64,000 nucleotides of DNA from PVC group bacterium (GTDB lineage: Bacteria; Omnitrophota; Gorgyraeia; B26-G9): the NCBI GenBank assembly GCA_024231215.1, contig JAAEQR010000072.1:129210-193209 (forward strand), given 5' to 3'. The translations under genes and the position numbers were made by a program. This document shows positions 8,671 to 35,954 of the stretch, one piece after another. The notes beneath the pieces are model-generated. The model searched no databases, was not told the DNA's origin, and was given only the letters and a program-made list of their open reading frames with translations. Within the stretch, counting starts at the first letter, position 1, and every line of letters begins with the position of its first letter.

Positions 8671-8737
8671 TTATTTAAATTTTACTGATCCAGAACCTAA
8701 CGTGTAATTCAACATACAGTTACCTCCCATATATTAC

Positions 8738-8766
8738 TTGACAACAATTACAATATATGCTATCGT
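8738..8766 (+). promoter_or_regulatory. sigma70-type promoter of the secretin cluster
   Basis: TTGACA-17bp-TATCGT with extended -10 TG. Confidence 0.6.
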
Positions 8767-8889
8767 AAAATTGTTTAAAATGGGGGAGTACTATAGGCTC
8801 TTCCATAGGAAAAATTCTTGCCTTTTCCAGGGAAGGAACGTGTTTTATTTTTAAAAGGAGTTACTGTCTTAAATATTGAAGAGGTGAAC

Positions 8890-27290: not shown

Positions 27291-27377
27291 GCGGAGATGG
27301 TGGAATTGGCAGACACGCTAGCTTGAGGGGCTAGTGGGAGCAATCTCATGAGGGTTCAAGTCCCTCTCTCCGCACCA
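27291..27377 (+). tRNA. tRNA-Leu(GAG)
   Basis: Cloverleaf with long variable arm, anticodon loop TTGAGGG, GTTCAAGTC, encoded CCA. Confidence 0.96.
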
Positions 27378-27469
27378 AGTTCTTCTTTGATCCCCTCCAG
27401 ATACAAGTATTTTCCAGTTTTTTCCCTGTGCCCCTTGCAAAGTCAAAATAGTTGTGGTATATTTTATTT

Positions 27470-27604
27470 GTTTATCTTCTCTAAGGGGCAGCATAAATAT
27501 TAAATATAAATTTGGGGATACGAAGTGAAACGTCCTTATTTCTCCATATAAGGCGTTAATAAGAAGACCCCTACTTCCCCCGTTCTTCGTATCCCCTTTT
27601 TTTT
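27470..27604 (+). ncRNA. putative structured small RNA or leader, copy 1
   Basis: Promoter TTGCAA-17-TATATT (27435-27463); GGGGATACGAAG/CTTCGTATCCCC stem + T8; inner hairpin; CCCCTACTTCCCCC; 5' end estimated. Confidence 0.55.
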
Positions 27605-27645
27605 GTTAGATTGAAAAATGGCTCAAGATATGATATAATTTCAAT

Positions 27646-27825
27646 GTAATATGTATGGGCTGAAGCAAAAAAAGAGGGAGGAAGGGGTTTTTCTATTCTC
27701 TTAAAGTAAAGCAATTAAAAAAGTTATATAAAATTTTTAAATTTGGGATGCGAAGATTAGATTCGCCTTATCCCCTAAGGCGATTATTGGCCCCTACTTC
27801 CCCCTATCTTCGTATCCCCTTTTTT
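27646..27825 (+). ncRNA. putative structured small RNA or leader, copy 2
   Basis: Promoter TTGAAA-17-TATAAT (27611-27639); GGGATGCGAAGA/TCTTCGTATCCC stem + T6; same inner hairpin and C-rich motif; 5' end estimated. Confidence 0.55.
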
Positions 27826-27853
27826 ATACCCATTTCTTTGGGGGGAGCTTAAT

Positions 27854-29494
27854 TTGACAGATTTTTATAAGAAATTACAATATGCCAGCCTAATTTTGAT
27901 CATCTTTTCATGTATTTCCCCCGTAAGTGCCCAAGAAGAGACATTTCTAAAAACCAAAATTGAAAAAATTGGTAATTCTAAGCGAAGTGAAATTAATCAG
28001 ATAAATCAGGTATTACGTAATCTGGATATTCCCAAAGAAATAGGTATGGTTAAAGAAACTTATATGCCTCGCAGTCCGAAGGCTAATCTTATTATTACAA
28101 TTCAGGATTTACATTGCCATTATCAAGCCCAAAAAAACATTGCTGCTATACTAAATTATCTTACTAATAATTTTGCGTTAAAACTTATCAGTATTGAAGG
28201 GGGCGCAGGTCCGATCGATACGGTGTTTTACCGTGAGTTGCCGGATGAAAGAATCAAAGAACAGGTAGCAGAATATTTTTTAAAAGAAGCTCGTATTAAC
28301 GGTACAGAGTATTTTGCGATAACGACAAATAAAGAAATTGCGCTTTATGGAGCTGAAGATTCTAAATATTATGATTGGAATTTAGAGGCGTTTTTAGATG
28401 CTTTGCCGAAACGGGAAAAAATACTTAAAGATGTTGCGGTTTTAGAAAATGCACTGAATATCTTGAAAGATCGTATATATAATAAGCGGTTAAAAGAATT
28501 AGATAATTATATAGTTGCTTATGAAAATAAAACGATATCATTTGAAGACTATATTTTAAATATAGAAAAACAGTATTCTAAGACTAAACTAATTAGAGAT
28601 TTTAAGCAGGTTGCTCAACTTGCCGAAAGTATTCATATAAAAAGAGAAGTTAATTTGGTAGCAGCAGAAAAACAACGAGGTGAATTAATTGATTATTTAT
28701 CAACAAAATTGCCCAGGAGAGAATTAGAAGAATTTTTACGAATCACTTTAGAGTTTAAGACCAAGACGGTAAAGGCATCGGAGTATCATAGTAAACTGAA
28801 AGAACTTTATGAGAAGACTATTGAAAAAACAAAGACTTTTGAACAGAATTGGCCGGATCTTAGTGAATATATCGTTTATTTGGATAAATATGAGACGTTG
28901 GATGATATTGAGCTTTTTAATGAAATAGATAAAGCTTTGGATGGAATAAAAAATAGTCTATATACAAGTTATACTCAAAAAAAGTTAGACCGAAATTTAA
29001 CAATAATACGCTTAGCGAGAAACCTTTTCTCCACAAAATTACTGCCACGGGATTTGCCGATAATCGATAAATATCGTAATGAGTTCAATGCGAAAAAAAT
29101 GGCTAAATTTATTAAACGTCAATCAAGAAGATTAACCCTTGATTTGCCGGTTCCAGCAGAATTAGAAGATATAGAAGATACTTTGCCGATGGTGGAAGAT
29201 TTTTATTATTATGCTTCACAGCGTAATGAAATTTTAGTAGACAATACTCTGGCATATATGAAGAAAGAAAACCAAGATGTGGGAATATTAATAACCGGTG
29301 GTTTTCATACCGATGGGATAACCGAGGATTTACGCGATAAACGTATTCCGTATGTTGTAGTAATTCCTCAAATAGATGCTCTTGAAGAGAATGATACTCG
29401 TTATATTGATGCCCTGAAGGGAAAAAAGACCCGTTTTGAAACAATGTTGGAAGGGGCAACTGATTCTGTACGAGATTTCTATTTTGGGAAGTAA
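27854..29494 (+). CDS. exported hypothetical protein with IQDLH...EGG...RN...GGFH motifs (TraB/ChaN/EreA-like metal site suspected)
   Basis: TTG start after GGGGGAG, signal peptide, IQDLHCHYQAQKNI, ISIEGG, QRNEIL, ITGGFHTDG. Confidence 0.75.
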   Translation: MTDFYKKLQYASLILIIFSCISPVSAQEETFLKTKIEKIGNSKRSEINQINQVLRNLDIPKEIGMVKETYMPRSPKANLIITIQDLHCHYQAQKNIAAILNYLTNNFALKLISIEGGAGPIDTVFYRELPDERIKEQVAEYFLKEARINGTEYFAITTNKEIALYGAEDSKYYDWNLEAFLDALPKREKILKDVAVLENALNILKDRIYNKRLKELDNYIVAYENKTISFEDYILNIEKQYSKTKLIRDFKQVAQLAESIHIKREVNLVAAEKQRGELIDYLSTKLPRRELEEFLRITLEFKTKTVKASEYHSKLKELYEKTIEKTKTFEQNWPDLSEYIVYLDKYETLDDIELFNEIDKALDGIKNSLYTSYTQKKLDRNLTIIRLARNLFSTKLLPRDLPIIDKYRNEFNAKKMAKFIKRQSRRLTLDLPVPAELEDIEDTLPMVEDFYYYASQRNEILVDNTLAYMKKENQDVGILITGGFHTDGITEDLRDKRIPYVVVIPQIDALEENDTRYIDALKGKKTRFETMLEGATDSVRDFYFGK

Positions 29495-35522: not shown

Positions 35523-35954
35523 GGGGGTGAAAGGTTTCGACTTAGGTTAATTTAGTAAGAGCAGCATGTCGAGGTGGTCGGGAGGCCTCGTAAAACACCT
35601 GACAAACACATAAACGCTGAAAGTAAAATTCCAGCTAGCGTAGATTCACTCATTTCAAAAATTGGTGAGGGTATTTCTCATCCGGTTTTTGGAGGAATGG
35701 CTCTAAGCCCAAGTGTTGCTTTAAGATAAAGCAACCCGCTTTTTAGTGAGTGTCTGTGGCATTAAAAAGCGTCATAAGCAGGCTCGTTAAATATGGTTAG
35801 TTTTTGACATATTTGATTAAACATTTCAAAAGCTGCCTTTGCAAGTATCTTGTTTGTCGGAGACTTGTTGAGAAAGATTAAATGACAGACTAAACATGTA
35901 GATACTCTTATTGGTTTCTTAAGGACGCGGGTTCAATTCCCGCCACCTCCACCA
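35523..35954 (+). ncRNA. ssrA: tmRNA
   Basis: GGGGGTG/CACCTCC acceptor with G3:U, TTTCGAC, GCATGTCGAGG PK1 region, GGACGCGGGTTCAATTCCCGCC T-arm, ACCA end; adjacent to smpB. Confidence 0.95.

Follow-up and report, generated by a model that had tools for sequence, protein, structure and literature searches.

6C RNA, which occurs in Actinobacteria, has two hairpins with C-run loops, and CsrA sponges of the CsrB/RsmZ type carry several GGA motifs in single-stranded loops. Other described RNAs act by base pairing through C-rich sequences. RepG pairs the C/U-rich loop of its terminator with a G-rich stretch of a 5' leader, at a relatively large distance upstream of the ribosome-binding site, and in this way controls an operon (PMC8295292). 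In Bacillus subtilis, C-rich regions of the small RNAs (sRNAs) RoxS/RsaE and FsrA pair with G-rich regions of mRNAs and of the partner RNA RosA, which has been suggested to open a stem within the sRNA (PMC8216469). The cuckoo RNAs of Alphaproteobacteria consist of 2-4 adjacent hairpins, each with CCUCCUCCC in its loop (PMC4615179). Here we describe two tandem, paralogous structured RNA elements, units A and B, in a 64,000-nucleotide (nt) stretch of a Candidatus (Ca.) Omnitrophota genome (contig JAAEQR010000072.1, positions 129,210 to 193,209; hereafter the window). They are a real, previously uncatalogued, family-restricted RNA pair, and complements of their C-rich seed are conserved in an operon that encodes a predicted exported coiled-coil protein, FliW and CsrA. 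We consider it reasonably probable that A and B are trans-acting sibling sRNAs that repress this operon through loop-nucleated pairing, and that B doubles as the self-regulating leader of an exported-protein gene.

Units A and B belong to neither RepG, RoxS-RosA, the cuckoo RNAs nor 6C, and functionally they are like RepG and RoxS-RosA. As in trans-acting sRNAs with a C-rich seed, a conserved structure with an exposed invariant seed goes together with a conserved G-rich complement in a distant mRNA. With RepG they share a terminator loop rich in C and U, as well as a G-rich partner in a 5' leader, a functional resemblance in which the duplexes of A and B are predicted ones (PMC8295292). However, the RepG target is a homopolymeric run of G, phase-variable and of varying length, in the tlpB leader, whereas here a defined complement lies in the fliW-csrA leader. 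The seed of A and B is an invariant sequence of two C-tracts in a large loop beside an inner hairpin, predicted pairing can enter the closing stem, there are two paralogues, one with a target site in its own leader, and there is no sequence homology (no Rfam match). The likeness to RoxS-RosA lies in the C-rich/G-rich pairing and in the predicted stem opening (PMC8216469). The two systems differ in that A and B have one seed each instead of several C-rich regions, match no Rfam family, and have an operon leader rather than a stand-alone RNA as G-rich partner, yet many of these leaders end in a terminator-like structure. Compared with the cuckoo RNAs the architecture is different, with one different motif in the loop of the closing stem. 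6C likewise has no Rfam match here, and is set apart by the restriction of the A/B family to Omnitrophota among the genomes searched. Unlike CsrB/RsmZ, none of 35 distinct units has GGA in the single-stranded linker and seed region; the sequence carries it in the 5' arm of the stem.

FliW antagonises CsrA in Helicobacter pylori (PMC11905337). In the source genome (G000; 3.3 Mb, 94% complete) fliW and csrA are adjacent, and both pass the Pfam cut-offs. This module differs in that no flagellin gene was found in the source genome and that the operon opens with the predicted exported coiled-coil protein. In the open literature searched, no paper turned up that describes a base-pairing sRNA directed at fliW mRNA or a base-pairing sRNA family in Omnitrophota, and the 14-nt motif of A and B appears in no paper of that literature. 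The main text of an Omnitrophota genomics preprint mentions neither non-coding RNA, FliW nor CsrA (10.64898/2026.06.07.730766). A second preprint links the giant genes of Omnitrophota to type II-like secretion loci, and the term 'non-coding' is absent from its main text (10.1101/2023.11.21.568195). Omnitrophota is a phylum known almost only from metagenomes, and a comparatively supported sRNA target is rare for uncultured bacteria. The pair raises two testable questions: which processes FliW and CsrA govern in the absence of flagella, and whether the FliW:CsrA ratio can be set by base-pairing sRNAs. With RNAs of about 90 nt and a target site of about 40 nt, pairing and regulation lend themselves to tests in vitro and in laboratory strains, with no need to grow the organism itself.

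Structure of units A and B

Units A and B are situated between a transfer RNA gene (tRNA-Leu) and P0001, the gene of a 546-aa protein. The features of the locus, in window positions, are:

27291..27377, + strand: tRNA-Leu (Rfam tRNA match at 27291-27374), which in the family normally lies upstream of the locus; tRNA-Leu(GAG) is upstream in relatives
27435..27463, + strand: predicted sigma70-type promoter of unit A; 17-bp spacer, 9/12 consensus, extended -10
27514..27604, + strand: RNA core of unit A, closed by a 12-bp stem (27514-27525 / 27585-27596); within it an inner hairpin (27529-27557) and the C-rich loop; tail of U8
27568..27581, + strand: C-rich seed of unit A, CCCCUACUUCCCCC; 12-nt core in 35/35 distinct units, full 14-mer in 32/35
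27611..27639, + strand: predicted sigma70-type promoter of unit B; 17-bp spacer, 11/12 consensus, extended -10; conserved 95-113 nt 5' of the B stem
27674..27692, + strand: G-rich site and U-run in the unit B leader, complementary to the seed; -20.0 kcal/mol, 0/60 shuffles equal
27745..27825, + strand: RNA core of unit B, closed by a 13-bp stem (27745-27757 / 27806-27818); within it an inner hairpin (27763-27783) whose CCCC loop is conserved, and the C-rich seed; U-run
27791..27804, + strand: C-rich seed of unit B, the same 14-mer as in unit A
27840..27847, + strand: G-rich Shine-Dalgarno sequence of the gene downstream of unit B, seen in the sequence and unconserved in most orthologues
27854..29494, + strand: P0001, 546-aa protein with a predicted signal peptide, family unknown (no convincing Pfam or NCBIfam family)

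An earlier sequence-only reading of this stretch had proposed two units with 17-bp-spaced sigma70-like promoters, and these hold in position and features. The 12-bp closing stems and inner hairpins that it described were also confirmed, with 13 bp for the stem of B; the folding z-scores are -5.89 for A and -5.61 for B, and none of 200 shuffles of either unit was equally stable. Its 14-nt motif is indeed identical in both units. That the motif is unpaired applies to B (mean unpaired probability 0.87) and in part to A (0.67), where the minimum-energy fold places some of it in a weak 4-bp hairpin. Similarly, the U-run after the stem is present in both units of the window and in 19/19 A units, but it is kept in just 8/16 B units. 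Exact copies of the 14-mer in the source genome are confined to A and B, and the covariance model found no third copy there.

The promoter scan alone is at chance level (3 found against 2.6 expected), whereas a permissive pattern finds promoter-like sites 5' of 30 of the 34 listed units. In relatives, those of unit A lie 11-93 nt 5' of its stem. Because only 11 nt separate the -10 box from the stem in G005, the 5' extension of unit A is dispensable in that genome; the functional unit of A is probably the core of roughly 90 nt. Unit A is predicted to be a stand-alone sRNA of ~135 nt that starts near 27470. Unit B probably has two roles, as an sRNA and as 5' leader for the gene that follows, and the next open reading frame (ORF) begins 18-44 nt past the B stem in 9 of 12 evaluable B units. 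No conserved small ORF was found within the units; a 34-codon ORF spans unit B, and its ATG start is absent from most B units.

Family range and covariation

In a DNA search of 60 relatives and a covariance-model search of the order, the element turned up in 14 of the 17 other genomes of one Ca. Omnitrophota family and in 0/1 genome of the order's other family. Both units are present in 11 of the 15 positive genomes. The three family genomes without the element are consistent with incomplete assembly, as the contig of G001 stops about 55 nt after tRNA-Leu and the neighbouring hemN-like gene was not found in G012 and G017. A model search of 150 other genomes of the phylum gave only three weak matches (E 0.009-0.029), all without the motif. 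The GTDB-wide pattern scan returned 61 loci: 16 titled Ca. Omnitrophota, one on a short contig titled Planctomycetia, and 44 that we reject as chance matches, with an outer stem that extends just 0-2 bp. Further units were present at 10 of 13 metagenome loci, the other three being chance matches, and seven pattern matches on viral contigs were all rejected as the structure is absent from them. Among the genomes searched, the family is confined to Omnitrophota.

The units in the window match no Rfam family at the gathering threshold, and eight homologous or target loci gave tRNA and transfer-messenger RNA (tmRNA) only. At E-value level the best score was 26.7 bits, against thresholds of 50 and 139.7.

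When 35 distinct units were aligned, 98.2% of the cells were standard pairs, compared with 42-53% in slid controls. Compensatory changes on both sides occur in 7 of 17 base pairs, and 0/500 shuffles score as high; these figures lean favourable, as the alignment is fitted to the structure and the genomes are related. The alignment contains 23 G-U cells and no A-C cells, and therefore the RNA is on the + strand. The A-U to G:U stem change that had been taken as a sign of this strand is real and is one of the 23. The 12-nt core of the seed is invariant throughout the alignment; metagenome units were selected on the motif, and the order-wide model search gave the same 26 genomic units and no variant ones. 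Covariation, strand asymmetry, the conservation of promoter-like sites and the absence of any Rfam match thus support the earlier proposal of a new sibling-sRNA family with a C-rich seed.

Two further loci stood out. The 5-kb contig titled Planctomycetia (L074:2351-4946) has an A/B pair nearly identical to that of the Omnitrophota family and is probably a misbinned Omnitrophota contig. G007 carries a lone unit A (L033, G007:C11:13443-13537) in a different gene context and with the first seed base changed. A site matching this change lies at the end of an lpxA-like gene, right before the next start (L259, G007:C109:3483), and may be due to chance.

Complementary sites in the coiled-coil gene-fliW-csrA operon

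The genome-wide target scan covered the source genome, with 2792 genes called by a simple ORF and Shine-Dalgarno script, so that some starts are wrong. Near start codons, the two strongest seed duplexes (energies in kcal/mol throughout) belong to adjoining genes of contig C195. They are the gene of a 489-aa protein (-26.3) and fliW (-23.8), and csrA comes next after fliW:

G000:C195:25766-27970 (L187:10767-12970): operon of the 489-aa predicted exported coiled-coil protein, fliW and csrA

A 38-nt fragment of unit A scores -45.2 against the operon leader, compared with a mean of -18.3 (standard deviation 4.9), and the third-best leader reaches -35.1. The predicted duplex has 25 bp with three G-U pairs and one bulge, and the site sits on the ribosome-binding region of the first gene. 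One other region alone scores like the operon leader with this fragment. It is a 30-bp complement of unit A on the minus strand (G000:C142:310135-310165; -45.3), as strong as the operon site, and is located between an exosortase gene and the surface-protein gene whose stop codon it closely follows. No such complement is found at that position in 15 other exosortase loci, so this candidate was set aside as at most genome-specific.

The distribution of fliW is much like that of the RNA. The gene is present in 15 of the 17 family genomes (the RNA in 14), in 0/1 genome of the other family, as for the RNA, and, in a sample of 200 genomes from the phylum, in 10. The operon leader is assembled in 14 of the 16 fliW-bearing genomes and cut off in G006 and G010. 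A complement of the seed is found in 11 of the 14 evaluable leaders, with energies from -20.4 to -29.9. In all 11 the site starts 63-77 nt after the -10 box, while its distance to the start codon varies from about 24 to 270 nt. Seeds of the same composition pair equally well in at most 2/200 cases in 10 of the 11 leaders, and leader shuffles matched the site in 0/150 cases in each of the 10 leaders so tested.

A second site lies at the start of fliW. This region reaches -17 or better in 9 of 14 relatives, compared with 5 of 237 other gene starts in the family; elsewhere the level is reached by 47 of 2792 starts in the source genome and, outside the family, by 0/10 fliW genes. In the three genomes that lack the leader site, the fliW sites are strong (-18.5 to -21.9), and therefore at least one site is present in 16/16 fliW-bearing genomes. 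The RNAs of a genome also pair better with that genome's own target than the RNAs of other genomes do (19/720 permutations as good, six genomes), and in G004 an unusual flank of unit B is mirrored by a 17-nt exact complement in its target. In some genomes the predicted duplexes reach 25-31 bp and include the linker and the 3' arm of the closing stem. The family-wide pattern search found no other conserved target, and inspection of the leaders revealed no conserved leader peptide 3' of the site.

Two targets suggested by the sequence-only reading did not persist. The G-rich sequence at 8782, in the leader of the merR-like gene that heads the secretin cluster, pairs at -15.2 kcal/mol in the window, and the best values in 12 relatives examined were -6.9 to -14.2, mostly at other positions. 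The G-run of the Shine-Dalgarno sequence at 27840 is lost in most orthologues. Exported-type genes were rejected as a preferred target class (mean -7.8 vs -8.7). The idea that the sRNA generally supplies a missing terminator arm in trans was also discarded, as G-rich sites followed by a U-run are not enriched between genes (8/142 intergenic vs 21/424 coding).

Several observations weigh against the operon as a target repressed by A and B. The leader site is absent in G003, G005 and G008, that is, in 3 of the 14 evaluable leaders. G007 and G009 have the RNA, and neither fliW nor csrA was found in these genomes, both 88% complete. The leader of the source genome is G-rich: it is first-ranked also for the reversed seed and for 2/8 shuffled seeds, and 12/200 seeds of the same composition pair with it equally well. 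Taken genome by genome, the flank extension reaches significance in just 2 of 11. Net dimer energies, with the costs of both folds paid, were computed for seven site-bearing genomes; they are modest (-4 to -12) in five of these, and G000 and G011 alone have strong ones. The fliW site in part overlaps an ordinary strong Shine-Dalgarno sequence. All sites come from related genomes, so that counts and p-values overstate independence. Finally, complementarity is silent on which RNA regulates which, and on the sign of regulation. The pairing of the two RNAs is more secure than the direction or sign of control.

A complementary site in the unit B leader

The leader of unit B, ~100 nt long, holds a G-rich complement of the seed as well. 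It pairs with the seed at -18 to -25 kcal/mol in 12 of 13 B leaders, and in 11 of the 13 no more than 4/60 shuffles are as good. No A leader of the 15 examined pairs with the seed more strongly than -12.2 kcal/mol. In the predicted fold of B, the seed is hidden by its own leader site in 3 of 13 cases. The site is predicted to bind B itself or A.

Proposed mechanism and alternative explanations

From the sequence comparisons we infer transcription of both units, their pairing with the operon mRNA, and the direction of regulation. A and B would each be transcribed from their own promoter. Transcription of A would end at its U-run, and that of B would partly read through into the 546-aa exported-protein gene. 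The RNAs would then act in trans on the leader site and on the ribosome-binding region of fliW, independently of Hfq, for which no gene was found in the source genome (94% complete). Pairing is expected to be nucleated by the C-rich loop, and in some genomes the duplex may spread to the linker and the closing stem's 3' arm. A site over a ribosome-binding region (of the first gene in the source genome, of fliW in 10/15 genomes) would block translation, while a site 150-270 nt upstream may work through leader structure, decay or a downstream terminator. Operon expression would be lowered and the FliW:CsrA balance shifted. The G-rich site in the B leader could in turn provide negative auto- or cross-regulation of B and its downstream gene.

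The alternative that survives best, though we regard it as unlikely, is a RosA-like sponge, in which a short terminated fliW-csrA leader RNA titrates or destabilises A and B, and their true targets are other mRNAs. A RosA-type partner would be a separate non-coding transcript. A terminator-like hairpin with a U-run, 164-274 nt after the -10 box and before the first gene, does end 7 of the 11 site-bearing leaders, but no such terminator was found in the other four (G000, G004, G011 and G017). The fixed distance of the site to the promoter rather than to the start codon fits a sponge, while the position of the site on the first ribosome-binding region in G000 and the second site covering the fliW start argue against one. 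The predicted duplexes invade the closing stem, much as RosA is proposed to open the RoxS stem (PMC8216469), but the pattern search, which covered the whole family, gave no other conserved target.

We are more doubtful about a two-way strand-displacement switch. In this scheme the attenuated fliW-csrA leader RNA would dock on the C-rich loop and open the closing/terminator stem of A and B, leading to read-through into the exported-protein genes, while A and B would silence fliW-csrA. If true, the switch would couple the flagella-derived FliW-CsrA checkpoint to giant-protein secretion in a non-flagellated bacterium without a protein sensor.

An improbable explanation is that A and B are cis attenuators, i.e., sensor-loop terminators that gate the exported-protein genes downstream and are possibly opened in trans by a G-rich leader RNA or a protein. 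Tandem attenuators had been offered as a second possibility in the sequence-only reading, and this is weakened by our results, as B's own promoter follows A and a conserved complementary partner exists elsewhere in the genome. Unit B does precede the same gene at the short distance given above, and exported-type genes are inserted between A and B, directly 3' of A, in G010, G014 and G015; however, in 7 of 11 two-unit genomes only B's promoter comes after A, and G007 has unit A by itself. As a mimic of the stem's 5' arm, the target site could take the place of that arm, but a conserved antiterminator fold was not seen, the U-run of B is weak in 8/16 units, and binding in trans within a short co-transcriptional window would be kinetically demanding.

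Very improbable, too, is a reading of the motif as a double-stranded DNA operator that a family-specific transcription factor binds, placed in opposite orientations at A/B and at the fliW operon. The same 12-14 bp do lie at a fixed distance 3' of promoters at both loci. However, the C-rich form is always in the loop of a covarying RNA stem that contains G-U pairs, in all three classes of partner site the sense strand is the G-rich one, and the motif is non-palindromic. Additionally, the sites of G000, G002, G013 and G015 depart from the complement by changes that include A-to-G opposite U, and the genome-matched complementarity reaches the stem arm. Protein decoys, whether like CsrB or directed at a C-rich-binding protein (Rho or a KH protein, for example), with an incidental link to fliW-csrA, are hardly credible: an invariant single-stranded loop would suit protein binding too, CsrA is present and the GGA of the stem arm could be exposed by strand invasion, but the linker and seed region is free of GGA and the conserved, order-specific complement in one operon leader would be left unexplained.

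Neighbourhood and genome context

Three paralogues of P0001 (62%, 30% and 30%) are found on the same contig in a giant-gene cluster (G000:C72:233195-308150), together with open frames of 7,821 and 10,733 codons. The P0001 domain also starts a 1,439-codon frame. Its Atlas look-alikes belong to unnamed clusters, mostly of Omnitrophota. No RNA like A or B was found 5' of the P0001 paralogue in the giant-gene cluster or of the homologue in the order's other family.

In another Omnitrophota family (f55), fliW-csrA is followed by an exported-type gene and then by a merR-like gene at three loci, and this merR-like gene resembles the one heading the secretin cluster of the window. Because fliW-csrA is near a merR-like gene in that family and P0001 has paralogues in the giant-gene cluster, a link of the RNAs and FliW-CsrA to secretion is plausible. 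In several other families, fliW-csrA occurs together with flagellar genes. The promoter region of the window's merR-like gene (8730-8770) is nearly invariant in the 11 relatives in which it is assembled. The conserved stretch, of ~30 bp, surrounds the -35 and -10 boxes and is suggestive of an operator.

Elsewhere in the window, a tmRNA follows smpB (35523-35954) and has a long insertion relative to the Rfam model in the region of the tag reading frame. Among the genomes used, G017 (8% contamination) and G008 (another genus) share identical or near-identical stretches (L176/L177, L309/L314), which suggests bin contamination. Short tandem heptamer repeats are present after surface-protein genes and upstream of the exosortase gene in several relatives (L304, L306, L308, L309 and L314).
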